A program made the translations under genes and the position numbers. A DNA stretch of 64,000 nt from Bilabrum cf. latius (Eukaryota). Below the pieces are notes generated by a model. That model did no database searches and was not told the origin of the DNA. It worked only from the letters and a program-made list of their open reading frames with translations. Of the stretch, positions 1-64,000 are shown piece after piece (the stretch's first letter is position 1; the number at the start of each line of letters is the position of its first letter). The stretch spans positions 248,001 to 312,000 of the forward strand of contig OZ237741.1 in NCBI GenBank assembly GCA_965178125.1. Direction: 5' to 3'.

Positions 1-3000
1 CCTCCACTTCCACCTCCGCCCCTCCCTCCGGCAGCACCACCGCGAGCTCCGCGGCGGCCCTGCCCACCAGCAGCGGGAGCCGCAGGTCGCGGCGTGGCTG
101 CATCGCCTGCAGCCCCCAGCTCCACAGCGCCTTTGGCAGCGCCACCACCGGCCCCTGGGGCAGCTGCAGACGCGCCGCTCGCGGCAGAGTCACCGTCGAT
201 GGCGAGCCCGCCAGAGGACTCGTCGGCTGCTTCCTTCAGGGCGGCCAGCTCCTCCTCCGCGGGCTCCTCGTCGGCCTCCAGGTCAATCACCGCAGGAAGG
301 CAGAGCAGGACAGGCGCCTGGCCGCCGCCCGCAGTCGAAGCACCAGACTTGCCCTTGGCCCCGCCGGTCAGCGTGACCCTCGGCCCCCCCTCGCTCTCCG
401 CGATGGTGGCACCCGACCGCACCGCGGCGGCAAACCCGCCCGTCGGCGCCGGAGCCTTGCCGTGCGGCTTCCTCCCGCCCTTGCCTCTGCCGGCCCTCCG
501 GCCTGCCCCACCCCGGGCCTGGCCTCCTGCATCGTCAGCACCCGCCGCAGGCGGAACACCCCCGCTGTGAGTTACAGAGTCCCGGGCCGCCGTCAGGGGG
601 AGCAGCGAGTGCCAGGGAACAAGAACTGGCTTGGGACCGGTCGCGCCGGGGATGGCCAGCCCGCCGGCCCCGGGAGACGCCGCCCCGCCGCTTTCCTCGG
701 CCGAAGCCACGGCCTGCCCGTCGAACAGCACCTCCACGTACTTGCTCTCGGCGTGGACCGCGGTGACGATGCCTCGCTCGCCCAGCGGCCTGGCCCTGTA
801 GGCCAGGTTGGTGACCCGGTCTCCGAGCTGGGGCCCGTCGGCCCACCACCGAGCCGCGCCCTGCGCCTTGCGGCGGCCGTCGGCCACACCATCACCACCG
901 CCGATGTTCCCCACGGATCGCATCTCATCCCCCGCCTCGCGCCCGTACACGCCTTCCGGTGGCACGCCCTTGAGTACCATCCTGCCGGACACGGGCAGGG
1001 CACCGCCGGCGCCCGACTTGCCCTGGGCCCTGAGCTTCCCTCGCACGGATTCGGCGGCCGCCTGCGCCTTTGCCAGCATCAGGACGGCCTTGGGGGCCAG
1101 CACCTCGGACGATGCCCTGGCGAGGGGCATCTTGAAGGTGACCAGCTGCGTCAGCCAGTCCTGCGCCGCGACCATCACGCTGCCGCCGCCCATGTCCCTG
1201 ACGCCAAGCCGCCCGCGGCCCCCCGTGCGCTCGGCCAGGTCCCTGATCGAGGGGAAGGTGTTCGCGTATGCCTCCACAAGGTCGATAGCCCGCTGCGAGT
1301 ACTGCCAGCGGGTGCCTCCGTCTGGGCACTAAGAGCCGCCGTCAGACCAGTCCGGATGGAACGGCGTGCCGTTGTACATGACGGGACGGGCGTAGCCCGG
1401 AAGGAACAAGTAGTGGTTGATCTTGTGCTCCTCTTCTTCGTCGCCGCCGCGCGCCCCGTGTCCCTTGCCCCCGTGGTGCCCTCGGTGGTCCCTGCCCCCG
1501 TGGTGCCCTCGGTGGTCCCTGTCACCGCCGGTGAAGTCTTCTCTCTTGTACACCACTAGGTTCAGCCCGGCGTCGATCTTTGCATCTCCGATCCAGATGC
1601 TGCCCGACATGGCCATAAAGGCCTTCTCCGACAGACCAACCATCTTGGCTGCCACGCGCATGTCAAAGTACTGCTCGGCAAAGTGCTTCACCTGCTGCCT
1701 GCCAAACTCGGGCTCGGCGCCCGCAGCACCGACAAGGGCAACATCGAGGCCCTCCCTCGGCGCGGAAGGATCGGAAGCGGCGGGCCCGGTCTCCTGTACG
1801 GGCGAGTAGCCCACCACAACTCCGTGCGCACCTGCGAGCCTGTCCGGGGCCAGCTTGCTGAACCCCGCGCGCGCGAGCTTCTCGCTCTTGTGCCCCTCAG
1901 GACGGAGGGTCCCGCTGGTAACCTGCACGGGCCGCAACAGCACAACCCTGGACCCGACAGGCAGTCGCTGCTTGAGGGCCTTCCCCTCTGCCTCGGCAAA
2001 CGTGGTGTCCGGGTGTGGGTGACCGGCGAACACGAGCTGCGCGGCCTCCTCCTCCTCGCCGTCGCTGCCCGCCGCCGCAAACACGCGGGTGAGCGTGCCG
2101 GTCCTCGGATCCCGCCTCATGCCCACCAGCTTCCGCACCGTGATGATCAGGCTCACGCCGCCGATCCACACGCCGCACCGCGCGAGAAGGTTGTCCTCGC
2201 TGCCTGTGAGCAGCACCTGGGACTTGTCCGCCGCGCGGGAGAAGAAGCGAACCTTCTCCGAGTGGTCCAGCTGCCTACGGCGAGGCGGCCGCGTGGCGCC
2301 CTCAAACGTGATCTCCGTCTTGCCGTCGGACAGTCCCACGCACATGGCGGGAGCCAGGAACGGCCAGCCGGTGTACACCACAGTACCGAGCAGCGGCACG
2401 GCCTGCTCCGCCGTGGCGGACCCCGCGTTGGCACCGAGGGCGGCTCGGAGCTGCGACGCCCCCTGGTACACCAGGTCGTCCCCAGGTGTGGGTGACCCTG
2501 CCGCGATCTTCCTTAGACCCTCCACGGAGTGCGGCACCGTGCCCGGCAGGTAGCCGCCCAGGAGCGACGGCATGTGCAGGGGGGCCAGCTGCTTGACCTT
2601 TACCTTGCCCTTGGCCGCGGCGCCGCTCCTCCTGGCCTCGTCCTCTGCCTCTTTCCTCTCCTGCAGCAGCATCACGCCAGGCTCGACGTACCCGCCCTGG
2701 CTCGCCTCCTCGTGCAGAGCGTGCTTGCCCATCCCCTGGATCAAACCGAGCATCCGCGACTGGTCGTGCCAGGCCTTGGAGGCCTTGGGTGCCGCGTCAT
2801 GGAGGAGGCGGTTGGCCTCGGGCGTTCTTCCCTGGTCGCTGGCAAAGAGGAGGACCGAGGGCTTCCTGCTTCGGAACGCAACAGTGACCACCTGTGCCTC
2901 AGCCTGCACTGGGGACAGGGGCAGCGTGTGCAGCGTTGGGAACCCGGGAGCGGGGATCTGCGCGCCTTGGCATGGCACGGGCACGAAACCATCGGGGGGC

Positions 3001-6000
3001 AGCTCTGGATTTCTCCAGACCTGCTCCACCGAGTGCTTGCCCAGCAGCGACGGCCAGACGCCCGGCATGGTGGACGGCACCGGCTTGGCGTCGGGGATGG
3101 GCTTGTCCTGGTACTGCATCAGAATGTCCTCCCCGAAGGCGTTCCTGGCGCGCTCCTCCGGAGTGAGCGCGGAAGGGGGGCAGTACTTTTCCACAGCCGC
3201 CCGCATGGCGGTCTCGGGGAGGAAGGGGATGAGCGTGACCCCCTCCCACGGGTTCTTCTTGCCGTTCATATCCACGCGGATGTCTTTCATCAGCGGGAAC
3301 CACTGGGCCAGCGGTGAGGCGCGGTCCTCCATGAGCTTCTGGTAGCACTCGGGCAGGAAGTTGCTCGAGGCTGCGGGGAGGCAGCCCAGCAGCTGCATGA
3401 AGGGGTGGAACGGCCTCGCGTGGTCAAACGTGATCTCGAAGTCCCAGCCAGCCTCGAAGTACTCCTTGCTCCCGGGCAGCGAGTCGTGACCGCCGCCCGC
3501 GCCAGAGGAAGCGCCCTCCGACGCAGAGCCGCCGATCGCTGACAGGCCAGGCACAGGGGCGGCGTACCTGGACAGGTCAGCGAGGTCGCTCGTGAAGGGC
3601 GCGTAGTGGAATGGGAAGAACCAGCTCCAGGAGGGCACCCCTTGGTAGTAGTACAGCATGCACCACTGCAGGCTCTCGGCAAAGGACCGCCGCACAGCGT
3701 GGTGGACCCGCGCGTGCAGCGCAACCCTCATGTCGCACGTCACGCCGAACTTCTCCAGGTAGTACTTCTCCCTCGCGTTGAGGCGGCCCCACTGTGCCAG
3801 CCGACGGAGGACGGCCCCCACTGCCTGGTCCTCGGGCGAGTCGGCCTCGTTGAAGGCGAGGTCGGGCAGGGCGCCAGGCCCCGCCTAGAGGACACCGTCG
3901 GAGGGCACGCTGTTGGCGGGCACCTCGGTCTCGCCAGCCTTCTTGGCGGCGGACGTGTCTGCCGCGCGATCCGTCGCGTCGGCAACGGCGGGGTCAGCGG
4001 CGGGGAGGCCCTCGAGGAACTTGACGGCGGAGCCAGCGCCCACGGCTGAGGCGGCGCCCCCCATGACGCTGCCCTTGCCTGCAGCCTCGCCCCCACTCTC
4101 GCCCTCGCCCTCGTCCACCTTCCTGTCCTAGTCCTCGCCGCGCCCTGACCCGAGGCTGAGCTGCTTGCGGAGCTCCATCGCCCGGAGCACGGCAGCGTCG
4201 GCTGCACCAGCCCCCGAGCTAGGGCCATTCTCGGACTCGACACCCGTGGCAGCGGCCACGGCTGGATCTGCGGCGGCGTACGCCGCGAGCGCGGCCGCGG
4301 CCCCCGTCTTGGCCTTGGGCGCGCCGGTCCCCGTAGCAGCCTTGGCGGCGTTCATGAGCAGCACCTGCGGGTCCACCTCCGCGGTGTAGTCCTGGGTGCC
4401 CACCCGCGCGGGTCCGAATGCTTCCGAGCCGCCACCGTCCTCGTCATCGACGCTCTCAGAGCCGTCGCTGTCGCTTTCCGCGTCATCGGCGGCAGTGGCC
4501 CTCTCGCCCGCCCTCATGGCTCGTCCCTTGCCGTGCCTCCACCCGCCTGTCTGCAGCGCGGCGACCGCCCCCCTAGTGGCCGCATCACGGGCCAATTCCT
4601 CGGGATCGCCCGCCTTCTCCTTGTCCCTCGAGTCCTCGATCTTGCCCATGAGCCTGGCCTCTCTCTTCTGGTCGGACAGCTGCCTCCGCCTGAACTTCTC
4701 CATCTTCTTGTCCCTGGACTTGAAGATCGCCTCCTCCTGCTGCCCCACGTGCTGCAGGATGGGCTCTAGCCGACGGAAGTTGATCTTGCCCTTGTGGCAC
4801 AGGTAGCCCCCCAGGGTGGGCAGCAGACGCCGGTAGGCCTCCATGAGCTCGTCCATGGCGCCCTCTCCGATGTCGAGGGAGGGCAGGTGAGGGATGAAGT
4901 CGTTGCCGCACAGGCAGGTCAGCAGCACCCAGTCGTCGATCGCGCGCTCACCGTCCCATTCGAACGGCAGTGCCGCGGCGAGGTCTGCCGCGGCCTTTTC
5001 TGCAGCGGTGGCTGCTGCCTCTGTGTCCTCGTCGGAGGCAGCGCCGCCACTGGCTGCGGATGCTGCAGCGGCGGCCATGAGCTGCTACTGGCCCGCGACT
5101 ACCCTGGCCTGCTGTGCGGCGCGGTAGGCCGTGGGCATGAGGTCCATCTCGAGGTACTCCCTGAGGATGCCGATGTGCAGGCACTGCCACTTGGTTTTCT
5201 TGGTGGTGCGCTCGGTCTGCTTGGTGGGCAGCTTGGACCTGCCGAACGCCTTGAAGTCGATCTGCTCACGGAGCAGGCTGAAGTTGACCTCATGAGTCGC
5301 CAGGGCCAGCATGATGAGGTCGGCGTCGAGCCCCGCCATGCAGTGCGTCAGGTTGGGGTTGTACCCCGGCTTGCTCTTCATGGCTCTGATGTAGTTCATG
5401 ATCTTGTGCTCACCCTCCCCAGGCACCTCGTGTCCCGAGAAGATGACCTTGGGACCCTGCCAGGCCCGGTCCGTCTCGACCTTCTGCCTTAATAGGAATT
5501 TTAGGTGCTTTGACACCGTGGCCATGAACTCCGTCCCGGGAGTGATGCAGTTGCTGTCGAACACGTTGTCGTCCTCGTCGCCCATCCCCACTGCCTGCCC
5601 CTCCTCCTCGGCCTCCTTGCCCCCCGCCGCTCTCGTCTTGCGCATGGCTGCGGCGGCCTCGGCCTTCAGCTTGATCTGGTCGCGGGCGCTGCGGAACCGG
5701 CGGGACCTCTGCTGGTTCATCTTGGCCCTGGGAGCCACGCCGTCCACGGCGAGGTAGATGAGCTGCTTGGGGCGAGCGAGTCGGACCATCGTGTCGATCT
5801 GCGCCACGACCTTGGCGAGCACGACCTCGTCGCTGAGGCGGGTGCTCAGGCCATCGTTGCCGTGGGTGGCGTTGTGAATCAGTCCATTCATGTCAATATA
5901 CAGGCAATCAAACGCGGCAATGAGCGTGCTGTCCTGGATGGCTTGGTTGATGAGCGGGTACCGCTCGGCCAACCATCGGTAGAACTTTGGAACTCCCTGC

Positions 6001-6199
6001 GAGAAGCAGAAACGGAAAAATACATGAAACATACGATGAAGAACGATTGCCTCTCGCCGAGTGCCAGAGGTGCCACGAGAAGGGCTTTCGATTCTGAGCC
6101 AGTCAACGCGACGATCGGTGTACCAGGCAAACGCGGAGACGGGTCAGTGCCAGTTGATGCATGCAGCAACTAGTGTATAGGCTAGTTAAGACTAACCAT
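1..6199 (-). CDS. XRN1: 5'-3' exoribonuclease XRN1 (3' end runs off the window)
   Basis: Motifs (M)GVPKFYRWLAERYP, DCLYIDMNGLIH, AVDGVAPRAKMNQQRSRRF, FDSNCITPGT, PGEGEHKIM, GLDADLIML, GNDFIPHLP, YYYQGVPSWSWFFPFHYAP. The C-terminal WQYSQRAIDLVEAY..FP and LGDRV..RGIV..VEVLFD (SH3-like) segments lie beyond TAG 1329-1331. ATG 6199-6197, intron 6196-5997, in-frame TAGs at 5085, 4128, 3885 and 1329. Confidence 0.95.
1467..1520. repeat. 27-bp tandem duplication in XRN1 (RDHRGHHGG x2)
   Basis: gcccccgtggtgccctcggtggtccct occurs twice in tandem, in frame, within a His/Gly-rich insert. Confidence 0.85.
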
Positions 6200-6539
6200 G
6201 ACTTGGAGTTGTCTAGTTTCCGGAGATTTCCCTGCAACGGAAGTGGTTTGCTTGGTACAAGCTTCTGCAGTCCTATAAAGTAGAATAGGAAGAAAATCGG
6301 GTCAACTTGTTCCAATGATGTGCTTTATAACGATGGAAAATATCGGTACCACCTTACCTTGTACCAAGAAAACGGGGCAAAAAGTATGTAAGAAGCTTTC
6401 AAAACTGGCCGGAATCGCCGATCCGACCTCGATGGGTTCCGGTTTTCCATCGCGATGACGAGTGCGTTCCCTCCGGTTGGCGCAATTGGCCTTTATCTTG
6501 AATATTGACACACCTGCGCGCTGATTGCGCACTCCAACG

Positions 6540-8318
6540 ATGAGTGCATCATCTGCAGATCCAGGGGCACCGTCACCAGGCAAGGATGCAGCTGGTTCGG
6601 GCGCCCAAAGTGGAACGGCTGCCGCTGCCGAATCCGATCCCGCCCTGGCATTTTTGGACCTGCGGGGTCCCCATGAGCCATTGGATGGTGATCGCGCCAG
6701 AGAATTGGTGAAGTTCTCAGTGGAGCCGCGAAGGGAAGCCGGAACTTTGAAGTTTGTGAAGCGTGTGGCCTTGAGCGGGTGGGGGTTCGACGCGGACGCA
6801 GCCAAAGTTGTGGCGCACGAGCTGCAGTAGCTTCCCGGTCTGGAGCACGTAGAGTTTAGCGATGTCGGGTCTGGTCGGACAGATTCTGACAACATTGCGG
6901 TTTTCACGGTCCTCTCGGAAGCCCTCAGCCCAGCATCCCGCGCGAAGGCCCTGGGGTGCGAGCCTACGGACGAGCGAGCACAGCTCGTGAACATCGACAT
7001 ATCCGACAATGCGGTAGGAATCGGGGCAATCGAGCGGTGGAGGTCCCTGCTGAGCGGAAACCAGCGGCTGCAGCGCATATCGCTGAACAATTGCGGCCTC
7101 AGCGGGGTAGCCATGGAGGCCGTCAACAAAATCCTGCTGCGTCCCGCCGGCGAGACAGTGGCTGACGTGGCCGCCGGCACTGATGGAGACGGCGGTGAAT
7201 TCGCAAAGGCTGCGGACCCCGGGGCAGCGGCAGGGGGTGCGGGGGAGGCTGAGGCCGGGGCCAAGGAGGCGGTGCCAGCCAAGGTCAGGGACATGGGGGG
7301 GGTCGGGGTGCCCACCCGACTGCGGGCGGTGCAGCTGCACAACAACATGGGCGGGAACGACGGCGCCGAGGCGGCCGCTGCTCTGGTCCGGGCTTCTCCC
7401 GAGCTCCGCTTGTTCCGGTTTGCCTCCACGCGGGGCCGGTCGGAGGGCGGTGAGGAGCTGCTGTCCGCCGTGTCAGAGCTGCGGCATCTCGAGCACCTCG
7501 ACGTGTCGGACAACATGTTCAAGTCGGAGAAATGCAGGGAATCGCTGGTGAACATCGTGAAGGGGCCTTCTGCCGACAGCCTGAGGGTCCTAAAGCTGAG
7601 CGACCTGCAGATGGGAGACGCGACCGCCAAGCAGGTGCTGGAGGCTCTGCTGACCGGGGGCGAGGGCGGGGGTGCGTCGTGCCCGCGGCTGGAGGCGTTG
7701 TTCCTCGGTGGCAACGACATCACGGCGGGGGGAGGGGCCAGCAAGCTGCTGGTGCGAGCAGCGCGTGAGCTTCCCTAGCTTAGGCTGCTGTCGGTGCCCA
7801 ACAACGAGCTCGAGTGGGTGGTGGGCGGGCCCCTAGCGGATGCCATCCGGTCCAGGCCTGCGGGCAAGGAGCTAAGGGTGCTTGACGTGTCTGGAAATGG
7901 GCTTGGATCGGCATCCATCACTGAGGTGGCGTGCGCTCTGGCGTCTGGAGCTGCGGGTGCGGAGGCCGTGGCTGCCGCCAAGAAGGAGGAGGAGGCACTG
8001 TGGGCTGCCGGGGAGGCGGAGGGCGAGCCCGAGGGAGGCGAGTACAAGGCTGGGACCAAGAGCGCGCGCGCGATGACTACGAGGGAGAAGGACGAGGCCG
8101 AGCTGGATGTGTCTTCGGTGCGGTTCTCGCTGGACGACAACACGTGCTCTGAGAAGGCGCTCTGCATCGCGAGGAAGGCGATTGAGGGCGTGGCGGGAGG
8201 CAAAGTAGGAACCATCGAGCTGCTGGACCTGTTCGACGACGAGGAAGAGAACGAGGAAGAGCGCGAGAAGATTGCCGATAAGGACCAATGGGACGCGCTC
8301 ATGGTTGAAGACGAGTAA
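6540..8318 (+). CDS. RANGAP1: Ran GTPase-activating protein (LRR) with acidic tail
   Basis: VEFSDVGSGR, IDISDNAVG, LNNCGLS, LHNNMGGNDGA, FRFASTR, LDVSDNMF, LGGNDIT and NNEL follow the RanGAP LRR order. ORFs 6525, 6987 and 7794 join in one frame through TAG 6828 and 7776. Ends in TAA. Confidence 0.85.
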
Positions 8319-11495: not shown

Positions 11496-12705
11496 ATGAT
11501 GCGGCGTTAGGCTGTCGGATTAAATAATGTACTGCGCAAGTCGTTCCATAGGATGCAATCGCGGTCCATCACGGTGCTGCGATCCGTAGAGGAAATGAGA
11601 TAGTATACACGGGCATAGGCCACCGGTGAAAAGCCTCGAATAGGGTTTGTACCAACGATGGGCGCGCTTCACGAGGGGCATATATCACTTATCAATGCAG
11701 TGAGTTCATGCATTTGTTGGGTTGGCCGTCATTCGCTGCGCACTCCTACAAGATGCACAGACAGACAGTTGCTTGTGTTGTTTCGATCAATCTCACCGCA
11801 GTCGAATAGAGAGTGCGCCTCGACCGTGTCAAGCGTGTTCGTTAATCCTGCTTAGTTTGCTCCTGGTGAAGACTTTGACGAATATCCTCGGCAGCTGGAG
11901 CGGGACGTTGAGCTGCTTCGGTAAGACGTCTCGAACCGCTGCCATCTTGCTTCCGAGGCGTGCGGCTTCACGCGTAGTAGACTTCCGCTCCACAAGCCTT
12001 TGCAGAGAGGCAGGCGCTAGCGCGGTGTTCGCCCCACCGGCATCGGAGATGTACCCCACGCACCCGCCAGCCCGAACCTACGTGGATCCCGCCGAGGCGG
12101 ACGAGGGCGCGGAGGGCCGCCGCCGGCCTGGCTTCTTTCGAGGCGTCGCGACGGTCGTCACAAAACTATTCAACGCCGTTCAGCCTGACCGCGCGTACTT
12201 TGGCCAGAAGGACGGGTACCAGTGCATCGTGGTGAAGTAGCTCTGCAGGGACCTGCTCCTGCCAGTGGATGTGCGGGTGCAGCCCACGGTACGGGAGGCA
12301 GACGGCCTGGCCATGTCGTCGAGAAACGCATACCTGAACAATGACCAGAGACTCGCCGCGCCTGCGCTGTACAAGGGTTTGCAACGCGTGAAGAGAGAGC
12401 TGGAGCAGGAGCTCGGTGAGGCGAGCACCGAGCACAGGAGCACTTGCTCGGTCGCGATAGGCAGCGAGCGGGGGGCCGCTCTGCTGGAATCGTTCCGGCA
12501 CGAAATCGAATCGGTAGGGGAGTTTGGAGAGATCGAATACCTCGACTGGGCCTGTGCTCTCACCGGCCGGCCAATCACAAGGCTTGGAGACTCGCTCGGC
12601 TCTGGAGGAGCAGTCCTGCTTAGCGCTGCGGTGCGCATGGGCAGCACTCGGCTCATCGACAACATAGTGGTGTTTGGGCAGCCAGAGGATCTCGGTGAGG
12701 GCTAA
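11496..12705 (+). CDS. panC: Pantoate--beta-alanine ligase (pantothenate synthetase)
   Basis: IGFVPTMGALHEGH, SVFVNPA*FAPGEDFDEYPR, EMYP, RPGFFRGVATVVTKLFN, AYFGQKD, READGLAMSSRNAYL, TRLIDN. Introns 11700-11801 and 11921-12005. TAGs at 11508, 11601, 11616, 11853 and 12238. Ends in TAA. An alternative start is ATG 11553. Confidence 0.93.
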
Positions 12706-19609: not shown

Positions 19610-19782
19610 CGAGTGGCTGTGCCGAGCCCCGCGTGTGTGGATCTGGATAGTCTATGGAGCGAGGGCAAGGTAGTGCTCAAGCAGAGAGTGCGTGACGGTT
19701 GCAATATCGATGTGATTATACTTCACAACGACCCCATCCAGTCTAGACACCGGGCGTCTCAACTCTGCACCCGGCGATCCAA

Positions 19783-21704: not shown

Positions 21705-21842
21705 CTCCAATCTTGCTGCAATGCCACCGAGAACGCCCCCCAGCAGACTAATCATGCTTGCGAAAAAGCACGCAACAACAATCTCAGGTGCAACTCCGGT
21801 CTAACGCCTCACCAAGGTTCGCATACCGGCGGATCGTTCACC

Positions 21843-23049
21843 ATGAGCGAAAGTGGGTCATCCTAGGCCCCGATTGCGGCCGCAAGTGGCGCGGGGGGAG
21901 AAGGTGAAGCACCTGCTGGGGCATCGTCGAGTTCATCCGCGGCCTCGGCTAGCTCCAGCAGTGCCCCGCAAGGCGCAATGGCACACGTAGCTCTATCTGA
22001 GAGAAGAAAAATTCAACTCGAGAAGGACAGAGCCGCAGCCGAGAAAGTTGGAATATCTCCCGTAGCAAGCGAGCCCTTCTCGTACGGGAGCACAGGAGAA
22101 CCAGACTCACCAGAGCTCTATTTGGTCATGCACAATATAGCAAAGCAACGAAACATTGGGAACATGATTCGCAGCGCTGTGGCCTTTGGTGTGAAGGAGC
22201 TGATCGTGGTTTCAAGGACGAGCTCTCTCAACATGCCATCATTTGGAGCCCAAGGGTCTCGACGCTTCCTGAACATTCGAAGGTTTGAGAGAATGGATGA
22301 AGCCAAGGAATGGATGGTAGCAAACGGTGAGTACGAGTACGTCAGCAGAATACCAGCGCGCTGTGTATTGGAGCGGCAGCAGCACACGCGAGCCTCTTTT
22401 CTCACCGCCCCCAGCACCTTGCTAGGCGTACCGCTTCCATCTGCTCGCAGACATTGCCCTCATCGGAATTGAAATCATGGCCGAAGCAAAGACGGTACAG
22501 TCCCACCCGTTCCGGCGCAAGACGGCTCTCATCGCCGGGAACGAAGGCGACGGGCTGACAGACAAGGTCAAGGAGCTTTGCGACGGTTTCGTGTACATCG
22601 AGCAGTACGGCCACGGGATCCACTGCCTCAACGTGAACGTCAGCACCGCCATCGTGCTCCACCAGTTCGGCGTGTGGGCGGGCTTCAAGGCCCAGGCGAT
22701 GGACCCGGACAGGGACAAGTTCGTGGTGCAGGACAAGCCAGACCCCAAGAGCACGCCGCTCACCGAGGCGCAGCTGGCGCTCAGGGCCAAGAGGCAGGCC
22801 AAGAAGAGGGCGAGGGCGGAGGCAGAGGCGATGGCGGCTGCGGGAGGGGATGGCGCCGGGGCGGCGAAGGGGGGTGCGGGGGATGGTGCGGTGGCATCAA
22901 CCGACGGTGGTGGTGGGTCAGATGGTGCCCCGGCCGAAAAAAGAGGCAGAACGAGTGCAGAAAGCAGCTCTGGCAGCGCATCAGGCAGCTCTGCTGCTGC
23001 CGGACCCAGCCCAAGTGCTGCCATGAGCGATGGTCCCGTTGAGACCTGA
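21843..23049 (+). CDS. SpoU/TrmH-family RNA 2'-O-methyltransferase
   Basis: HNIAKQRNIGNMIRSAVAFG, AGNEGDGL, YIEQYG..CLNVNVS. Intron 22327-22450. TAG at 21864 if the start is 21843 (alternative ATG 21978). Ends in TGA. Confidence 0.88.
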
Positions 23050-23233
23050 AAATTTACGCCAGGATGCTTCTGACTGCAACCACAACATACAAGGCGTCTG
23101 CTTTGCCAATGAACATTCAGAACGCCGAAGGTATAGACCCAACATATACATTAAACTCATTGCGCCCATTCAATTCTGCGATTCGGAATTTCCACGCCTG
23201 TCGCACATTGCAGCCACATTCGAAAGCAACGAA

Positions 23234-51900: not shown

Positions 51901-53521
51901 TGCATTCTTTGGGGTGACTGTCGTGGACGAGCGGCTCAAGGTCATTTCCGCAGGCCGCAGAATCCTTCGATCGGGATGGCGAGCCATCGCTCTCGCCCGC
52001 CGCATCGAGTTCGAAGCGCTAAGGCAGTCTCCTCCCCCTCCCATGAATCCGAGCTGGAAGCGCCATTTGGAGGATCTCTCGCTGCAGGCGAGAACCATGA
52101 CTCTCAGGGATGCGCAGTCCGCGGCCGCGCTGTCTCAGGCCAAAGACGCGCTGGAGGCACAGCAGAACCTGCAGCGGATCCGAGCCGCGCCGCCAGGGCT
52201 GCCCGTAGAGAGGGAACGACGCCTAAGGGCGCGACTCGCGCAGAGGCAGGTGCAGGAGATGCGTGACAGGCGTCGCAAGGACACCCGAATGGCGGAGGAG
52301 GACGGCTGGGGCGTGGGCGCCAAGGGGCTCCTGGAGGCCGGAGAGCTGCACGCTGCTGACGCTGCTGACGCTGCTGATACTGCTGCTGCTGCTGCTGCTC
52401 CTGCTGCAAAGGATAGTTCGCAGCTGCTGTCACCGGGTGGCGTGAGCTCCCCCACCGCTGGTTCTCTGAGCTGGCGCACGCCCTCCAATGCAGGCGGGCA
52501 CGGTGGCCGATTCGATGTCACCACGCCGGCCAGTGCGTCTTCATCCGCATCCAAGGCCGGCAAGGCCCAGGTGTTCTTTCGAAGCGACCAGGATGACACG
52601 TCGGAACCCTCTGAAACCGGTATCGGGTCCAGATCTCAGCCAGCGGACACTCCATCCAGCACACGGTCCGGCAGGGCACTTAGGAGACGCATGTCCCTCG
52701 ACCCCACGGACGGTGCCACGGGCGTCTAGGATGGCCTGGGGGCAGTCGTGGAGGAAGGTTCAGGGGAAAATGCAGCGCACGGTGGTGCCATGAGTGCAGC
52801 GGGCAGGTCTATGCCGACCGATTCTCTGCGGCTGAGCTCGGTTGGAACCGACGGCCCTTAGAGCACTCGCGCAGGAGGCAGCTCGCATTCCGTCCGCGCA
52901 GCAGCTCAACACGGGCACGTGCACGTGCACGTGCCGGGAGCCTCTGTGAGGTCTCTGCACTCGGTCGCGGGTGAGGACGAGTGGGAGCCCCTACAATCTC
53001 GGGCAACCTTCCGCAAGACGGCTGCGTCGCCCATCGGCACGGACGGGGCCGGGTCCGGCGGCGGCATGTTTGCCGCCCGAGTCGGTTCACCGACGAGTCG
53101 AGGCTCTTTAAGGCGGAATTCTTCGCTGGTGGAGGATGTTGCGGAGGCAGACCACGACAACGAGTTGGGCGCCTTCCTTGGCATGCTAGATGACGACGAC
53201 ATGCTGCTGTCGGGGAGCGAGGGGGAGGAGGAGGGCGGTGAGGGAGAGGGGGAAGGGCTCCACGACGGGCTCTTCGATGGCAGCGACTCAGAGGCAGCGG
53301 AACAAGGAACAAAGGGCCGTGGAGGCGGACATAGGCGCCGGGGTGACGAGTCCGCAGACTCTGATGACTCGATGGAGGGCATGCAGCCACGCAGGGGTAA
53401 GGGCAAGGGTAAGGGCAGGCGGTCGTCATCCTCCGACAAGGATCCGTCGATCGTGCTGCGGGCGCTCACGCGAGCGTTCGATGCCTCGAGGAAGCAAGGT
53501 GTGCTCAAAGCTATCACATAA
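39947..53521 (+). CDS. Giant single-exon hypothetical protein, 4,524 aa, with Sfi1-like Arg/Trp helical segments and disordered linkers
   Basis: Sixteen ORF-track fragments (40166 to 52919) share one frame. Manual reading of every gap found about 35 TAG and no TAA/TGA. An in-frame TAA lies just upstream of ATG 39947. Ends in TAA. Confidence 0.8.
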
Positions 53522-53789: not shown

Positions 53790-55067
53790 TTATCTGTGGT
53801 GGAAAACGACAACGTCTCCGTCTTGCATGACGTACCCCGCACCCTCGCTGCGCATGAGGCCCTTCTTCTTCGCGGCGGCTTCCGAGCCGCACTCCAGCAG
53901 CACGTCCCAAGCGATCACGTCGGCACGGATGAAGCCATCCGAGATGTCGCTGTGGATGGCCGCCGCCGCGTCCTTTGCCGTTGTTCCCTGTGCGATTGGC
54001 CACGCCCTAGATTCCTGCGGCCCCTGCGTGTAGAAGTTAATCGTCCCCAGCAGCCCCTGCACCTTGCGGATCACCTCGGGCAGGCCCTCTGCCTCGGCAT
54101 CCAGCCCCAGCTCGGCCATGTACTCTCGGCGAGCCTCCACCCCCTCCTCCCCCGCCCCCAGCTGGCCCAGCTCCGCTTCGAGCTTGGCGCACACCATCAG
54201 CACGTCAGCGAGGGGCGCTTGTGTTCCCTCGCTGGCATCGATCCCCTGCGCCTGCTCCTTTTCACGGAGCAGTGCCACAGACTGCTCCATCTCGTCCTAG
54301 ATGGCGGCCTTTGCCATCGCCGTGAGCTCGTTGCCACCAGAGGCAAGCCCATCCTCGTCCACATTCAGAACGTAGAGCACGGGCTTTTGGGTGATCAGGC
54401 CTAGCGTAGGCCAGGCGGATTCGTGGCCCTCGGGCAGCCTGCCTGCCAGTTCGAGGTGCCGCGCGGGTGCCCCCTCCTCTAGCAGGGGCTTGACGGCTTC
54501 CAGGCATGCAAGCACGCTGGCTTGCTCCGCTTTCTTCTTGCCTTTCTTGCTCATCGATTCCAAGCGTTTCTCCACGGACTGCAAGTCGGCCAGCACCAGC
54601 TCCGAATTGATCACTTGGATGTCAGCCGCCGGACTTAATCCGTCCTCAGCATCCACATGAATAACATCTTGGTCCTCGAAGCACCGAACCAAGTGCAAGA
54701 TAACACTACAACCCCGAACATCAGCGAGAAACTGGTTTCCTAATCCTTGCCCGGAGGCCGCCCCCTTAATAAGACCGGCAATATCTGTAATGTCAACGCT
54801 AGTAGGGACGGTCCTTTCGCTGTTGGCCATCTTGCCGAGGGCGATCAATCTAGAGTCCAAGATGGGAACGCTAGCCGTTTGCGCTTTGATCGTGCAAAAC
54901 GGGTAGTTTTCGCTTGCAGCGGCTTCGCTCTGCGTGCAAGCGTTAAACAGCATGCTCTTGCCAATATTCGGCAATCCAACGATTCCCGAGGACGCAAAGC
55001 GCCGAGACTTCCACGCGACCGAAATCAACTTAGCATTACATCTGCGAATGACTCGGGATATCAACAT
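53790..55067 (-). CDS. ychF: YchF/OLA1 Obg-like ATPase, bacterial/organellar type with presequence
   Basis: GIVGLPNIGKS, ENYPFCTI, DIAGLIKGA..G.GLGNQFL, HLVRCFED, NVDE, TGS domain (RAW, AAIHSDI..GFIRA, EGAGYVMQDGDVV.F). The two ORFs join through TAG 54297. Ends in TAA. Confidence 0.93.
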
Positions 55068-55170
55068 GTATCGCTCTGTGCTATGCAAATAAGCATTCAA
55101 ATGCAGCTGTTGCCTTTGAGCCCCAACGAACCTTCGGGCCAAAACGGTTCGTTTTGCCCTGCGATCCTGA

Positions 55171-56955
55171 TCACTGCCCAGCGACTCGCAGCATATCTGG
55201 AATGCTGGTAATCTTCACCCTCGGTCTGCCTTGCGGCTCCCCCGCGGCAGCCTCGGCAGCATCAATCCGCCCCCAGCCGTTCCAGTCCACAAACCCGCTG
55301 CCCTGCGAATCGCTCGTCACCATGCCACCCTACAGCCTCTGCCTCAGCGCCCCCAGCCGAGCACCCTTCTCCTCGTTGTTCCCCAGCCGCCCCTCCGACC
55401 AATCCTCCAGCACCGCTCCCGCCGTTTGCTTTGCGTCCGGAATGTTTGTCCCGATGATACCCGTGGGGCCTCGCTTGAGCCAGCCAGCGCAGTACAGGCC
55501 CCGCTCTGCAGAGGGCGATTCGGGCTCCTGGCCGTCCCCTCCCTGTTCCCCAGCCGCCGCTCCATCAGCCGCCACGGCCCGGGTCACCCGTCCGCCTGCC
55601 TGCCGCACCACCCCCCTCCACTCGTCCCAGCACGCCAGATCCAGGCCGGGCACGGGCTCGGACCTGTACCCGATCGACGTCAGCGCCATCCCGCAGGGAA
55701 CAACTTCCTCCTCGCCGGTTGCAACCGCCTTCTGTGCCCCCGCGACACCCTCAAGACCCGTGATGGTGCACCGCACCCCGGAAAGCCCCCCCCCGCTGCC
55801 GCCCCCCACAAACTCAACGGGGGACAGGAAGAATCGCAGCCACACGCTCCTGGGGATGCCGGCCTGCTCCGCTGCATCCACGCTGGGAAAGCCCCCTTCT
55901 CCCTTGGAGACCTTCTCCAACAGCGCGTCCATCCTCTTGCGCGCCCGCTGCTGCTTGATCTCCTCCATGCTCGACTCGGTACGTCCCTTGGCGAGGTCCT
56001 CGGGGCGCACCACCGCCGCGGCTCCCTCCAGCCTGGTCAGCTCCCTGAGCTCCTTCATCGTCATCGCGGCCTGTACGTGTCCGCGACGCCCCAGGACCTG
56101 CACTCTCCGAACCTTCGATTCGGCGAGAACCTCCAGGGCGTGGTCGGCGATGTCGGTCTTGCGCAGCTCGTCGAGCGATTTGACGAGCACTCTGGCGCAG
56201 TCCACCGCGACGTTTCCCTGCCCCACAATGGCGACGCTCTCTGCCTCTGATCGGCCCAACATCTCGGCCATGCGGGCGGTCTCTTCGGGTGAGCTGAAAT
56301 CGGGATGACCGTTGTACCAATTCACGAACCGGCGCGCTGACAGCACCTCAGGCAGATCTTCGCCAGCTGCTCCCAAGCTGCGGTCGGACTGGGCGCCGTA
56401 CGCGAGCACCACAGCGTCGTAGGAGTCTCGCAATTCATCCAAATTTACATCTTTGCCAAGCTCTACGCCGCCAAAGAACCGGAATTGCGAGGAAGGCGCA
56501 TCAGCCACCACCGCGGAGAAGTCGTTTGCTACGGATTTCACTTCAGGGTGATCGGGTGCGACCCCGCTACGCACCAGACCTGTGATCAAAATAAAATAGC
56601 GGTGGAAAGAAGTGGACTCTTTGCCACAGCAAGCATGGGCATCCAGTCTAAGAGCTGCCACAGCATCAACTTGGCATCACTCACCAAAAGGCGTAGGCAA
56701 TCGATCGATAACATCAACTTCGGCTCCATCGCACTATGATAGCAAGTACTTGGCGGTATAGAATCCACTCGGGCCACTGCCAACCACGCACACCTTTGGA
56801 GGCGATGCTGCCGCTGTCGACATCATCCGGCCGTCTTTGCGCAGGTCGAAACATCTTGTAGCTGTTGCAAGTCTAAACGAGGTGTAAGATCGAGCTACGG
56901 ATTGCGATACCACAGATACAAGCCTCCTAGATCGCATTGCATGCATACTATTCAT
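55171..56955 (-). CDS. FDXR: Mitochondrial NADPH:adrenodoxin (ferredoxin) reductase
   Basis: VVGSGPSGFYTA, LPTPFGLVRSGVAPDHPEVK, WYNGHP, GQGNVAVDCAR, GRRG, SIGY, GWLKRGPTGII. The C-terminal VDWNGWGRIDAAE..GRPRVK lies after TAG 55330. Intron 56684-56580, second TAG at 56734. Ends in TGA. Confidence 0.93.
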
Positions 56956-57788: not shown

Positions 57789-58243
57789 ATCTAGCCTCCC
57801 CAGGTCTGTGCGTCCGTGCTAGTGGACGGGATGAGCATCATGCCTCTAGGTGGGCGGTCGAAGATATGGACGGCTCTTATGATATTTGAATGTATGCAAG
57901 GCACATTAAATGCTTCTTCAGATGCACACTGTTCTGGGGGTCCATGCATTGAACTCGCCGCGTCGCGATCGCGCCATCATGTTGGCGTGCGGATTCAACC
58001 ACTCAGCCTGCAGCATTCCAGGCCTACATGGTATCGGCGTATGCGCCGTCAAATCAATTTTGTTTATCGCAGCTTATCAGCACACAGCACGACAAGCAGG
58101 TAAGCACTGAGCATTCAATCCCCCAACTGCAGGTGCAGCGCACTGTAATGCACCTGGTTGCTTGCCGACTCTGGCTGATCCTCTCCGAGTCTGGCGTACA
58201 CTGCTCAGTCAAATCAGCATGGTCGCTCGATTCGAACTTTGAT

Positions 58244-60721
58244 ATGGAGGCTGCAAGAATCGTGCCGGACGGGGCATTCCACGGAAGGCAGCAGGGTTCG
58301 AGGCGACCGCAGCTAGAGCAACAGTCACAGGCGTCCAATTAGGCATGCTTGTCACCGCAACTGCAAGCTGGACTATTTGTGTTCAATATTATGGTCGGCT
58401 CTGGTGCGTTAGCGCTGCCAAAGATATTTGGTGAAGCCGGCCTGGCACTTTCAACAGTGTTTCTATGCTTGGTGGCTGCTCTCTCTATTCACACGCAACA
58501 TCTTCTCCTGGAAGCGCAAGGTGTTGCGGCAGTTCTGGAAGGGCTTCGTCAGCAGGCCGGACAGAGTTCAGTGGGGGGTGACGTCCTAAATGCGAGCGCG
58601 CTGCAGCGATACCAGCGGCCATGGTCGTTCCCGGCGCAGATAGCTAGCATATGCCGTCTTTTGCTACCGCCATGGGGTGTCTGGATTTGGTATACCATTA
58701 TCATTTTATATTTGGTTCCAGATCTGGCTGTGTACTCTGTGTTCGTGCCTGCGACGGTGGCGCACGTGTTTCCCGGCGTGGAGCTGAACGGTTTCATGGG
58801 CAGGGTTGCCTCCAGTCTCGGAGCTCCGAAGAGCAATGGTACCACGGTGGATCATAACGGAGTATAGCCGCATGATGGTGCGGTTTTTGTGTCGGAGCAA
58901 GCGGTGTACGGGACCACGCTCCTGCTGCTCGCACTCATTGCAACCCCGCTGACTTTCTACTCCTTGAAGAAAACGACGGCACTGCAGGTTGGAACCCTGA
59001 TGACTAGGATTGCCGTTTTTGGTGCAATGACAGCCTGTGCGCTGTACTTTGCGATCACGCGGGATTTCGGCCGGCACGGTGAGTCCGAGTCGGCCGAGGC
59101 GCTCGACGCAGACGATGCGGATGAGGCCGAGCACGCAGGTGTTACAGCAGGAGCTGTCGACACCCACGTCATTGGGGGTACAGATCCCCTCAGGGTGTAT
59201 CAGATGTTTGGTCGAGAACTGCGCGATACTGTCTCGAACAGCTCCTCAATTGCGCCGAACTCTAGCGCCAGCATCGTGCCCGATCCCGATCCCGCCCCCG
59301 GCAACAGGTTCCACCCCAGCCACCTAAACCCAGATGGTGACCCGGCCGAGCCGCGAGTACGGCTTTGGAGAATGGCTGGCTTGCCTCTGCTCTTTGGAGG
59401 GGCTGTGTATGCCATGATTGCACAGCAGTACGTGCCTAGCCTGTTTGCTGGCCTGGGAGCTGCCGTGCCCAAGGCGGGCGAGCACGGAGCACCCGCTCAG
59501 GGCACATCGGTCGCAACAACGCAGAGGTAGGCTCCCGATGGGAAGGATGCAGCAGAACCAGAGAACAAGCCAGACCGCTGGTACGCCCGAGGCATCGTGA
59601 TCAAGGTGATCGTGTGCGTGCTGGCACTCTACCTCGTGGTCTGCTGGTCGGCTGTGTGGGCGTACCATGGTCTGGTGCAGCCCGAGGAGGGTTGTGACGC
59701 GCACACCACGCACGCGTGCGGGCTGCAAGACCTGTACATGTTTGGTTTCGGTTACGTGCGCCCGTGGGAGCTGTCTCGGTTCATCCTGCTGGCCCCTCTG
59801 CTCTCGATGCTCTCCTCGTTTCCACTTATTGCCATCACGCTGAGGGACTCTCTGATCCTGCTATACCTTCAAACCTGTGGGAGGAGTATTGCTAGCAACG
59901 CCAGTGAGGGCATGGTGCTATCCATCCGAAACGCTGGTGGAGGCTCTGGCACCGCAAGTTAGCTGGGTTCGGGGAACCCCCCAGGCTTAGATGAGGAGAA
60001 CGCTGGCAGTACCACCGGCCCGAATCCGTCTGCTGGTATTGAGATGCAGCGAATAGACGGCGGGTAGGACTCTTTCGGTGATGCGAGTAGAGTTGCCGCA
60101 TAGGGAGTCGCGTTTGGCGGAGCTGGGGCCGCGGCCATCGCCGAAGATGAAGACCAGAACGGAGAGCACGATCGTGACCCGCTCGTGCAAGCCGATAGCG
60201 GTGGTACCGGCTTGTCCCGCGCGGTAGGGGTGGCCAAACTCGCGGCCCAGTTGGCCGACGAAGCGGTTTCCGAGCTAGTCACGGCCACCGCCCCCCAAGC
60301 CTCCGCGGCCTCCATGCCGTTCAGCGTGAGGTGCGTGGCAGCGCTGGTTGCAACCGTGCCTGGGTACTTGGTCGCAAGTTGGACTCGGAATATTGACGGG
60401 CTGGTGGAGGTGACGGGCGCGTTCGGGGGCGCTGCGATCATGTTCGTTGTGCCTGCCTTGCTGGCAGCTAGGGCAAGGGCCGTGAGGGCGCGGCTGCTGA
60501 GCGCATGTGATGAGGCCGAGAAGAAGGGTGGGAGCCAAGGGCAAGGATACGGGGCGTTGTTGACGCGGGAAGCGGCTGTGCGGGTGAGGCTGGCGGTGCA
60601 TCACGTGGCGGATGCGACCAGGCCGCCGGAGTGGCAGCGATCCCTGGCTGGAGTCGTGATACCGCTCTTGTTCGCGGCGGTGTGCCTCGCGGTGAATTTG
60701 TGGACTTTGATCGCGGACTAA
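58244..60721 (+). CDS. Amino acid transporter, AAAP/SLC38 family (TMEM104-like)
   Basis: LFVFNIMVGSGALALP, DLAVYSVFVP, LFGGAVYAMIAQQYVPSL, SSFPLIAITLRD, VTGAFGG..IMFVVPA and multiple hydrophobic segments. Four ORFs join through TAG. Ends in TAA. Confidence 0.8.
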
Positions 60722-60858: not shown

Positions 60859-62213
60859 ATGGCCGGCGTCCCTTTTACTGATGATGACTTTGAAGAGGAT
60901 CGAGTCCCTCAAGGCTCCCGCAGGCTTTCCGATGGCTCGCTCCTAAACTTCCGAGACATCAAAATGTAGAAGGAGATCGGACGTGGAGCCTTCAGCCATG
61001 TCTACATGGGAACTTGGCGGGGTCTCAAGGTTGCTGTCAAGAAAATGAGGCTTCCTAACAGAAAACTAGGGAAACGATCTGCCGAAGAGGATGAAGAAGA
61101 GCCAGATACGTCAAAGTACTTGGTAACCGAATTGGCAGTCCTGAAGGCTGTGCAGCACGAGCATCTCATCAAGTATCACGGTGCCTGCATTCACAAAGGA
61201 CATATTTACGTTGTGACGGAGTGAGTTGCCTGGGCTAAGTGTTGTGCTGCTTTGGCGTATTCCATCGCTGCCGTGCGAGACTCTGCAAGCTTCAACGCCG
61301 AGTCCCGCGTGCCGTTGCTTGCTCTCACGATGACAATATCTTGAATAGTTGGTCTTCATATCGCAGGTTGCTCGACGGAGGCGATTTGCAGCGCGTGCTG
61401 AACAAGGCACCCGCATCGCTGCCTTGGCTGCGCCGCGTGCAGCTTGCAAGGGACGTGGCAGAGGGAATAGCTTATCTTCATACCATGGAAATCATTCATA
61501 GAGATATTAAGACGGAGAACGTGTTATTAGATGACAAGTGGCGACCCGTTGTGGGGGACTTTGGCTTCGCAAGAAAAGCCGAGCAGGCGAAGGCGATGAC
61601 CATATGCGGCACGCCCGCTTTCATGGCCCCTGAAGCAATCTGGGGCGAGGAATATTCGCAGCTGGCGGACGTGTTCAGCTTTGGCATGATCCTTGCGCAC
61701 CTGATCACCCGGAAAGAGCCCGGCGAGAAGGGTTTCTTCGTCAGGGAGCCCCGCACCAAGTTTGAGCTCAACATCGACGAGATCGACGCCGCTGCCGACG
61801 AGGGCTGCCCCGAGTCCCTCATGGACCTGTGCAAGCAGTGCCTGGCAAAAGAACCCGACGACAGGCTGGAGAGCTCCCTGGTGCACGAGTGGCTTTCGGA
61901 GCTTCACGCCGAGCTGCTCGACGAGGCGGGCGAGGGCGCGGAGGACGCAGAGGACATGAAGGTCTCTCCCAGCAGCATCATCAGCGGGGAGGAGGCTCTC
62001 GGGGCAGCAGGTGATAAGGCGGGTGGGGGTGCGGCAGCAGAGCTCTCCCCGGAAGACAAAGAGAAGCGAGCACGTGCCCTGGCGGAAGCAGCGGCAGCAG
62101 AGGCGGCGATGGCCATGGCGGATGCTGGCGAGGCGCCCTTTGGCGCTGCGCACGCTTAGGTGGCATCGAGCGGCGACTTGGGCTCGCCTGTGGTGGGAGG
62201 TGAGGGTACATGA
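60859..62213 (+). CDS. TKL-group protein kinase (LIMK/TESK-like)
   Basis: IKM*KEIGRGAFSHVY, VAVK, HRDIKTEN, DFGFAR, ICGTPAFMAPE, DVFSFG. Intron 61221-61366. TAGs at 60967 and 62157. TGA at 62211-62213. Confidence 0.9.
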
Positions 62214-62401
62214 TGGGAGGTAGAGGGAGGCCGACGCGTTACCTGTAAAGGTGCCTGTCGAGCCCTCGGGGTGACGGATCCGCTCCATCATGCGCTGCAC
62301 TGCCAGCTTCCGGTTCTGGCAGCGCGGATGCTGGGTGCGTGCATTATTTAGCGATCGATATGGGAACGATAGAAATAGCAGGCTTTACCATCACTGAGGA
62401 G

Positions 62402-63904
62402 ATGGTTTTCTACTAGATCTTAATCGCTGCGTTTATACTTGTCGCCACTGCCGTGGTTTTCAAGATTTAGCAGCACAATGCGCTGCCGCAAGATGCCCGA
62501 GCCGTCATGCAGCAGAACGAGGACCACGAGTAGAATGACGGTGTTGAAAACGCGCGTGGCGATCAAGACGACTGGAATGCCGAGCATGACAGCGACGAAG
62601 ACGAAAGTGGCGAGGAGGACGATGGAGACGATGGAGACGATCGCGACAACGCTGCTGCACTGATGAACATGGGTCCCAGGGCCCGTGCAGCTGCATTGAG
62701 AAGAAGGGAGCGGGCCCATCGGCGAGAGATGGTTCGCGACATGAGGCGCGCCATGGTAGAACGCAACAACGAGGCCGAGCGAATCCGGCTGCAGCGCATG
62801 GAGGAGCGGGACGAAGAGCAGGAGGAGCAAGTTCGAGAGTAGCGAATCCAAGAGCGCGCCACAAGAGATGCGTAGGAACGCCGACTGTGGAGTGCTTTGG
62901 AGGCACTGGGCCTGGAGCGCGCTGATTGCCTCACGTCGGTGGCAGCAGATGGCACCCTGCTGCACAGAGCCCCACCCCAGCAAAACGGCACCTAGCGATC
63001 GCACCAGCCGTCTGGTACTATTAGACCCCCGGGTCTACCCGGGGGTGGTTCCTATTCAGGGGTGAATCCACAGAGCCTCAGGCTGGGGGCAGTCGCCCTG
63101 GCGTCGCTTCGCAGCCGGCTGCAATCGACCAGTGTCGCCGGCAGCAGCAGCAGCAGCAGCAGCAGTCCTACTGGCAGTGGCAGTTCGAGTCTGGCTGGAA
63201 ATGGCAAAGCGCTGATTGACATCCCGGAGATAGCTGGCTGCTTGCTGCACGGCCACGGTGCCCCCGACAGCCTAGCTGCTGCCCTGTCAATCTCTTCAGG
63301 TCAGGTAAAAGCCGGGGTGGAAGTGGCAGCATCAGTCTCTAGTATTGGGCATGCAGGAGCTAGAGGGCTTGCAGCTGTCATTCGGAGCATGGCTGAGGGC
63401 GCGGAAGCGTTGATACATTCTGCAACAGACTAGGCTATCTCTGCCACAGGGTCGAGAGACAGACCAGAAAGTGCTGTTGAGCCAAGTCAAGCCGATGCCG
63501 CTACGAATCACTTCTCATCGCCAGCAGGCGCCTCCACTCGAAGTGCGGCTGGCACTGATGCTGGCACTTTCACCGGCTCACGGTCGATAGAAGCACAAAC
63601 ATTTCAAAGCCTTGGCTCCGAATGGCACGCCGTGCTTGCTGACGCACCAGTTGGTAGGCTAGTCGGCTGCACGCGAGCGGCGCTTCAGGCATGGCTTGCA
63701 ATGGAGCACCCCGGAAATGGCAGCTCAAGAGGCGATGCAACCAATGAGCTCTCAGTCAGTGCTGGGGCTGCAGGGAAGAAAGGTAAAGGGATTGTGATTC
63801 CTAGGTCTGGGATCGATGTTGACGCGGTGCATGAGTGGATGCTGCGCGATGCAACACCGGCAGTCGGGACCGATGCATCGGCAGTCGACCGACCACGTGA
63901 TTAA
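62402..63904 (+). CDS. Hypothetical N-terminally membrane-anchored protein with acidic and coiled-coil segments (500 aa)
   Basis: MVFY*ILIAAFILVATAVVFKI*QH, then an Asp/Glu-rich stretch and an Arg/Glu helix. The frame is open apart from TAG up to TAA 63902-63904. Confidence 0.6.
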
Positions 63905-64000
63905 GTCGATGGCTATACCTGCAATCTTCTGTATCAACGGGTAAGCCCTTTTGAAAATCACGCTTCCTCTTTCTTGGCTTCCCCAGACTTGTCGGCGGCA

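Follow-up and report, generated by a model that had tools for sequence, protein, structure and literature searches.

A probable UAG = glutamine nuclear code, with UAA and UGA kept as stops, in a 64-kb GC-rich eukaryotic locus

Genes and reading frames of the window

The window, a stretch of 64,000 nt with a G+C content of 62% (contig OZ237741.1, positions 248,001 to 312,000), holds 20 gene models on its two strands (Table 1), in which conserved housekeeping enzymes, membrane proteins, a flagellar component, and several very long frames lie side by side. A common feature of nearly all of them is the codon TAG within the reading frame. At least one in-frame TAG is found in 18 of the 20 models, the exceptions being the CDC50 and scramblase genes, a recount that is close to the 19 of 22 models given in a preliminary description of this DNA. 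The nuclear code in use very probably reads UAG as glutamine while UAA and UGA remain stops, which is equivalent to NCBI table 15.

In the standard code, no stop-to-stop frame of the window exceeds 851 amino acids (aa). When TAG alone is read through, frames of 4528, 2292, and 2047 aa emerge, followed by further ones of 1193, 1017, 922, and 910 aa; the 2047-aa frame is that of the exoribonuclease XRN1, which is open only in this reading. If TAA alone is read through, the maximum is unchanged (851 aa), and with TGA alone it rises to 930 aa.

Across the 17,513 codons of 17 frames taken as genes, the coding frame contains 116 TAG, while TAA and TGA are both absent, zeros that arise partly by construction because these two codons delimit the frames. 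In the two off-frames of the same DNA, the counts are 127 and 112 for TAG, 44 and 48 for TAA, and 262 and 281 for TGA. TAA or TGA is thus met off frame about every 55 codons, and frames of thousands of codons therefore do not arise by chance. Coding frames exclude TAA and TGA, whereas TAG is not avoided in them. Alongside 563 CAG and 172 CAA codons, the 116 TAG codons correspond to about 6.6 per 1000 codons and to about 14% of all glutamine codons, such that UAG is a normal sense codon used at a fairly low frequency.

XRN1, NAE1, PanC, PRODH, YchF, FDXR, the protein kinase, and the ODAD1-like protein all span TAG with their domains intact and with no frameshift. The earlier statement that in-frame TAG is common on both strands is confirmed by these counts, and the gene names that accompanied it are upheld by Pfam or Protein Data Bank (PDB) matches for the first seven of these proteins. 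The remaining name, RanGAP, is not: the protein at 6525-8318 is recognizable only as a leucine-rich repeat (LRR) protein, the PDB matches of which are designed LRR proteins and ribonuclease inhibitor.

Table 1. Gene models and long frames of the window, with TAG read as a sense codon (positions as in the window; values after domain names are E-values).
Gene or frame	Position	Strand	Matches and remarks	Introns	In-frame TAG	Stop
XRN1, 5'-3' exoribonuclease	3-6143	-	Pfam XRN_N 5.4e-90, XRN_M 7.1e-83, XRN1_D1; runs off the window start		4	
LRR protein, acidic tail	6525-8318	+	Pfam LRR_1, LRR_6, LRR_4 only		2	TAA
Coiled-coil frame, 910 aa	8498-11230	+	no Pfam match		11	TAA
PanC (pantoate-beta-alanine ligase), 3' part	11704-12705	+	Pfam Pantoate_ligase 6.8e-56; TAG in 'VVKxLCRDL'		1	TAA
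Low-complexity frame, 2292 aa	12731-19609	+			21	TGA
NAE1 (NEDD8-activating enzyme E1 regulatory subunit)	19783-21710	-	Pfam ThiF family; PDB human NAE1 3.5e-85	21208-21327, 21514-21608	2 (coding)	TGA
SpoU-type methylase	21850-23100	+	Pfam SpoU_methylase on both exons	22327-22450	1	TGA
HAD-type hydrolase, 429 residues	23027-24316	+	Pfam Hydrolase_6 7.9e-23, Hydrolase_like 3e-11		1	TAA
Proline dehydrogenase (PRODH), EF-hand insert	24853-27700	-	Pfam Pro_dh 5.4e-64	26482-26677, 26819-27287	2	TGA
ODAD1-like outer-dynein-arm docking complex protein	28131-31184	-	Pfam ODAD1_CC 3.8e-13; PDB docking-complex chains of Tetrahymena and Chlamydomonas		8	TGA
Fringe/DUF604-like glycosyltransferase	31438-32580	-	Pfam DUF604 3.5e-07, Fringe 2.8e-05		3	TGA
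1193-aa frame	32841-36422	-	no Pfam match		12	TGA
CDC50/LEM3	36400-38060	+	Pfam CDC50 2.5e-57	36637-36741, 36876-36959, 37177-37308	0	TGA
Scramblase	38200-39500	+	Pfam Scramblase 4.3e-08	38815-38946	0	TGA
4528-aa frame	39935-53521	+	no Pfam match		35	TAA
YchF/OLA1-type ATPase	53790-55214	-	Pfam YchF-GTPase_C 1.5e-30		1	TAA
Adrenodoxin/ferredoxin-NADP reductase (FDXR), 3' part	55171-56676	-	Pfam Pyr_redox_2; PDB bovine adrenodoxin reductase 2.1e-86		1	TGA
Amino-acid transporter-like membrane protein	57953-60721	+	Pfam Aa_trans 1.9e-08		6	TAA
Protein kinase, 3' part	61239-62213	+	Pfam Pkinase 1.2e-34		1	TGA
551-aa frame	62249-63904	+	no Pfam match		7	TAA

Residues found at TAG sites in close relatives

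The amino acid read at TAG was examined in protein fragments of close relatives, all of which come from Logan assemblies and represent one or more relatives. Fragment P0121 is 97% identical to NAE1 over 469 aa, and P0242, P0241, and P0243 are 94%, 86%, and 84.5% identical, respectively, to parts of the 4528-aa frame. P0244 is 76% identical to the 2292-aa frame over aa 1131-1296, a segment that covers no TAG. Identity to the window is thus highest in NAE1 and falls to 76% among disordered proteins. A search of representatives with aa 1-1200 of the latter frame returned P0244 as the one relative fragment; two further matches were discarded as low-complexity. For the 4528-aa frame, the protein database yielded the relatives' fragments and no full-length form, and metagenome contig scans with a segment of this frame and with NAE1 exon 3 revealed no relative.

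Seven TAG sites of the window are covered by these alignments, and the relatives have glutamine (Q) at five of them, lysine (K) at one, and serine (S) at one. At TAG 20656-20658 of NAE1, P0121 has Q. Along the 4528-aa frame, the residue is K at 45563, Q at 49151, 49607, and 49664, Q again at 52727, and S at 52859. The differences are thus mostly between TAG and a glutamine codon, as is expected if the two are synonymous. For comparison, glutamines that the window encodes by CAG or CAA are conserved at 71 of 83 sites in the same alignments. With a likelihood calculated from the substitution frequencies of the relatives' alignments, the log10 values over the seven sites are -5.49 for Gln, -12.25 for His, and -12.58 for Lys, with all other residues lower, such that Gln is favored over the next residue by a factor of about 10^6.7. 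The codons AAG (K) and TCG (S) are each one base away from TAG, and the K and S sites would fit ordinary replacement at 84-86% identity.

The window itself harbors a further indication. At 14390-14395, two adjacent TAG codons lie inside a 14-codon polyglutamine run (CAG x5, CAA, TAG, TAG, CAG x4, CAA, CAG). Q at five of the seven orthologous sites, together with this TAG pair, supports the glutamine assignment made in the preliminary description, and UAG is, judging from the alignments, interchanged with CAG and CAA between close relatives.

The ends of the fragments are informative as well. P0241 ends directly before window TAG 45737, P0244 directly before TAG 16619-16621, and P0242 before a window CAG, a pattern that in-frame TAG in the relatives themselves would produce. 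Thus, the relatives, at least two of them divergent, appear to share a code in which TAG is sense.

TAG in spliced transcripts

Sampled words of a 10-kb stretch of the window are fully present in five public runs and to 69-79% in three others; runs X9-X18, which hold 5-10% of the sampled words, may be relatives. Contigs of runs X1, X6, X7, and X8 were compared with the window over 19701-39700, with X6-X8 originating from two studies. The contigs of X6-X8 contain eleven joints, nine of which were checked, and the stretches skipped in these nine all have GT..AG ends. X1, which is DNA-like, has none of these joints, keeps the introns, and has a flat depth of about 34-40, whereas the depth of X6-X8 varies between genes from about 1 to 740. 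Because of the joints and the uneven depth, we infer that X6-X8 are RNA-derived.

No differing letter with respect to the window is present in the listed pieces, and no run reports any. In NAE1, both coding TAGs, at 20656-20658 and 21340-21342, are retained in the spliced contig. Of the two PRODH TAGs, one lies at 26158-26160 and is carried by the spliced PRODH contig; the other lies in exon 26678-26818. Overall, 26 in-frame TAGs were counted in 19701-39700, and 25 of them fall within the listed pieces of X6, with the HAD site lying outside those listed, and a 27th TAG beyond the 26 counted (21340) is within X6 piece 21327-21513. A single X6 contig, 28077-31221, spans all eight TAGs of the ODAD1-like gene with 0 other letters, and all 12 TAGs of the 1193-aa frame are located in X6 pieces, again with 0 other letters. 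No joint in the contigs crosses any of the 23 TAGs of the ODAD1-like gene, the Fringe-like gene, and the 1193-aa frame. The transcript evidence consists of assembled contigs rather than raw reads. Since the spliced contigs keep TAG with 0 other letters, RNA editing and assembly error are excluded for the covered sites in 19701-39700, as is splicing-out. Unedited UAG in the mRNA, which the preliminary description had named as a check on its assignment, is therefore what the spliced contigs of X6, X7, and X8 contain.

The contigs also reveal where reading the frame alone is misleading. Both introns of NAE1 stay open in the frame of the exons, the one at 21208-21327 measuring 120 bases, a multiple of three; of the five TAGs in this frame, two are coding and three intronic. 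Which TAGs are coding is therefore misjudged when only the frame is read, and the counts given above are slightly overstated. The preliminary description is to be corrected on this point and on two others. In the SpoU-type gene, the sole TAG lies 7 codons past the first ATG and could belong to the 5' untranslated region; in the 910-aa frame, the first two TAGs are upstream of the first ATG. The GT..AG joints and the flagellar gene ODAD1, which implies cilia, fit the intron-containing flagellate of the preliminary description.

Termination and assignment of the code

With TAG read through, the 19 complete genes terminate at TGA (11 genes) or TAA (8 genes), and neither codon is ever found in frame, so that the reassignment is limited to UAG, as was proposed earlier. 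Gene ends were defined with TAG read through, and six C-termini were checked by homology. NAE1 ends with TGA at the C-terminus of its family, aligned to the last residue of human NAE1, and so does FDXR, aligned to residue 459 of 460 of bovine adrenodoxin reductase; the TGA of PRODH lies 19 residues beyond the Pro_dh domain. The TAA of YchF is located at the family end, with the YchF-GTPase_C domain extending to residue 472 of 474, and 112 of 120 homologues extend just 1 residue past the last residue of the query. PanC and the HAD-type hydrolase end with TAA at their family C-termini, the Hydrolase_like domain of the latter ending at residue 412 of 429. In addition, the TAA of the 4528-aa frame coincides with the end of the relative fragment P0243. 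UAA and UGA still terminate.

Several observations weigh against the assignment of UAG to glutamine as the sole function of this codon. Only seven orthologous sites are available, two of which are not Q, and the sites are ascertained in that they are visible only where the relative itself is without TAG, owing to standard-code gene calling. The columns of distant homologues do not single out Gln. In NAE1, the column of the motif 'IGxSRAK' has K in 42, Q in 23, and R in 17 of 119 sequences, and the second TAG site aligns with E of human NAE1. The YchF column has E in 33, A in 33, K in 20, and D in 14 of 120; the PanC site aligns with R, G, and R in three distinct PDB proteins, and the ODAD1 sites with E and A in PDB alignments. 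The residue at TAG is likewise not diagnostic in the PDB alignments of the LRR protein and FDXR, and a likelihood based on neighbor composition ranks I, H, and S before Q. X6-X8 are not recorded as RNA, their type having been guessed, and their RNA origin follows from joints and depth. The tRNA(CUA) and eRF1 steps proposed below are modeled on other UAG-only codes, with a window that is devoid of tRNA genes. Finally, 64 kb leave room for occasional termination at UAG.

The alternative that survives best, although with a low probability, is an ambiguous UAG that is mostly glutamine but acts as a terminator in some contexts. Ambiguous stop/sense codes, involving other codons, are found in Condylostoma, karyorelicts, and Blastocrithidia. 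A TAG terminator situated before an open frame would escape gene ends that are drawn with TAG read through, and the two genes with the highest depth have no TAG, which could hint at a decoding cost. Nevertheless, NAE1, FDXR, and PRODH (with TGA) as well as YchF, PanC, and the HAD-type hydrolase (with TAA) all stop at the family end, and TAG is equally frequent in and off frame and is distributed throughout genes, with 35 in one frame.

Somewhat less probable still is a code of the NCBI table 6 type, in which both UAR codons (UAA and UAG) encode Gln and TAA is merely rare in a GC-rich genome. UAA and UAG nearly always change together, according to the parts of PMC5304391 and PMC11687900 drawn on here, and TAA is indeed the rarest stop triplet of the window on both strands (341, versus 841 TAG and 1455 TGA). 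However, on the basis of the CAA:CAG ratio of 172:563, about 35 in-frame TAA codons would be expected in the 17,513 codons if UAA were also Gln, and none is observed. Reading through TAA adds extensions of 1-247 codons only and merges no long frames. UAA is therefore a stop, as in table 15. Moreover, TAA closes eight genes and does so at the family C-termini of YchF, PanC, and the HAD-type hydrolase and at the end of P0243.

A different sense meaning of UAG (Lys, Glu, Leu, Ser, or Tyr, as used in other variant codes) is very improbable. One orthologous site each has K and S, and the columns of distant homologues are rich in K, E, and R. Against this stand the five Q sites of seven with the likelihood ratio in favor of Gln, the TAG pair within the polyglutamine run, and the fact that K and S can each be reached from TAG by a single base change.

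The least probable proposal is that the TAGs are not translated at all, being products of assembly or sequencing error, sites edited to CAG, parts of unrecognized introns, or features of pseudogenes, for which the three intronic TAGs of the NAE1 frame might speak, but which is refuted for 19701-39700 by the contigs, given that five runs hold all sampled words of the 10-kb stretch, the spliced contigs of three runs retain TAG with 0 other letters, no joint crosses the 23 TAGs, and the domains are intact.

Decoding of UAG and comparison with known codes

UAG can be read without UAA only by the anticodon CUA. A single mutation of tRNA-Gln(CUG) suffices to give tRNA-Gln(CUA), which is documented in ciliates and hexamitins with UAR = Gln, and eRF1 is usually altered in motifs of its N-domain, e.g., T32G in Iotanema (PMC5304391). 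By analogy, a glutamine code limited to UAG would employ a tRNA-Gln with the anticodon CUA, derived from tRNA-Gln(CUG), and the recognition of UAG by eRF1 would probably be weakened. No tRNA genes were found in the window with ARAGORN, Rfam matches in the window are likewise absent, rRNA included, and eRF1 is not among the Pfam-annotated genes of the 64 kb.

Among the closest known counterparts is Iotanema spirale (Fornicata), in which UAG is Gln and UAA and UGA are stops (Panek et al. 2017, PMC5304391). Both are non-ciliate flagellates in which only UAG has moved to Gln with UAA kept as a stop, and a tRNA-Gln(CUA) would be expected in each. I. spirale is an anaerobe of an unrelated supergroup, the Metamonada, and is known from its transcriptome, with the eRF1 substitution T32G, whereas the organism of the window has a GC-rich genome and is placed among stramenopiles by one gene tree.

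Ciliates are the lineage most prone to code change. Codes in which only UAG is Gln are described there for Protocruzia tuzeti and for the phyllopharyngeans Hartmannula sinica and Trochilia petrani (PMC11687900). These share table 15 with the window, as well as the kind of evidence, namely internal UAG at conserved Gln and stops at C-termini. In contrast, 93.5-100% of their C-terminal alignments end with UAA (PMC11687900), while the genes of the window end 11 times with TGA and eight times with TAA. Other UAG-only codes assign Leu, in the rhizarian exLh and some phyllopharyngeans, or Ser, in Scotinosphaera (PMC5304391, PMC11687900). In these, UAG is likewise uncoupled from UAA, but the orthologous sites point here to Gln rather than to Leu or Ser.

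The UAR = Gln code (NCBI table 6) is used by Tetrahymena and other ciliates, hexamitin diplomonads, ulvophytes, Streblomastix, and Amoeboaphelidium. It resembles the present code in the change from stop to Gln, most simply reached through an anticodon mutation of tRNA-Gln, and differs from it in that UAA is Gln and not a stop. Code 15, with TAG as Gln, also operates in crAss-like and other phages (PMC9523058). Those are phage genomes that rely on suppressor tRNAs in bacteria, whereas the window is a spliced eukaryotic nuclear locus.

Affinities of the organism and significance

The best named matches of NAE1 are stramenopiles with 36-39% identity, i.e., Scytosiphon, Cafeteria roenbergensis, Tribonema, and Bicosoecida sp. 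CB-2014. From the window, 20 named matches, and the 10 best unnamed ones (31 rows, with 90 of 120 matches left out), a quick maximum-likelihood tree was calculated. In this tree, the window and P0121 are sister to C. roenbergensis with a support of 96 in the Shimodaira-Hasegawa-like approximate likelihood ratio test (SH-aLRT), in a group made up mostly of stramenopiles; the tree has long branches, and GC-richness is common to both taxa. The organism is thus probably a stramenopile, which is a lead and not a result. The resemblance to bicosoecids suggested in the preliminary description is weakly supported by this position beside C. roenbergensis in one quick gene tree.

In the parts of PMC5304391 and PMC11687900 drawn on here, nuclear codes that split UAG from UAA are few, comprising those of Iotanema, the rhizarian, Scotinosphaera, Protocruzia, and some phyllopharyngean and oligohymenophorean ciliates. 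The code proposed here is therefore a rare one already known in few unrelated protists, and the lineage is probably one for which it has no prior description. No nuclear code change in stramenopiles was found in the literature searched, where PMC11412368 and PMC12152300 matched through their reference lists alone; since the runs are as recent as 2025, there may be a description elsewhere. With about equal chances of being right or wrong, the window may represent the first nuclear code change in stramenopiles, i.e., an independent move of UAG to Gln with UAA kept as a stop, in a GC-rich flagellate near the bicosoecids and apparently shared by at least two divergent relatives.

A further case, apparently stramenopile and GC-rich, would be independent evidence on the ways in which the UAR pair can be split by eRF1 and tRNA-Gln(CUA). 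If true, it would provide a non-ciliate system for the uncoupling of UAG from UAA, one for which public DNA and RNA-like runs exist. Gene calling with the standard code shatters the proteins of this organism, and the annotation, phylogenomics, and orthology assignments of its lineage need code 15.

Other features of the window

No Pfam match was obtained for four of the long frames. The 1193-aa frame contains a run of about 18 Glu residues. In the low-complexity 2292-aa frame, a 22-residue unit, GAARASHTAPGGSALLSTGSGT, is repeated four times in unchanged copies at about 13800-14070 (aa ~360-446). YchF is of the bacterial or organellar type and is extended at its N-terminus, perhaps by a targeting peptide; its best matches, only 41-47% identical, are a mixture of diatoms, Clostridia, and other bacteria.

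The CDC50 and scramblase genes (36400-39700) have the highest depth in X6-X8, reaching about 740, and are the only models without TAG. TAG could be avoided in highly expressed genes, although two genes amount to an anecdote. In the scramblase gene, a joint at 38349-38746 skips 396 bases, and in X6, X7, and X8 three extra letters stand between the flanks of this joint; an alternative joint, 38349-38442, is present in X6. The extra letters may reflect a 3-base micro-exon or alternative splicing. One X7 contig joins 22844 to 37222 with 27 unrelated letters in between and is probably an assembly chimera.

Between the Fringe-like gene and the 1193-aa frame, a segment of 30 bases (32538-32567) has a word depth of about 4400 in X1, compared with about 38 around it, and contigs of X1, X6, and X8 break or have loose ends there. 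Within the window, the segment occurs once, with 3 mismatches allowed; a short element that is multicopy in the genome is a possible explanation.

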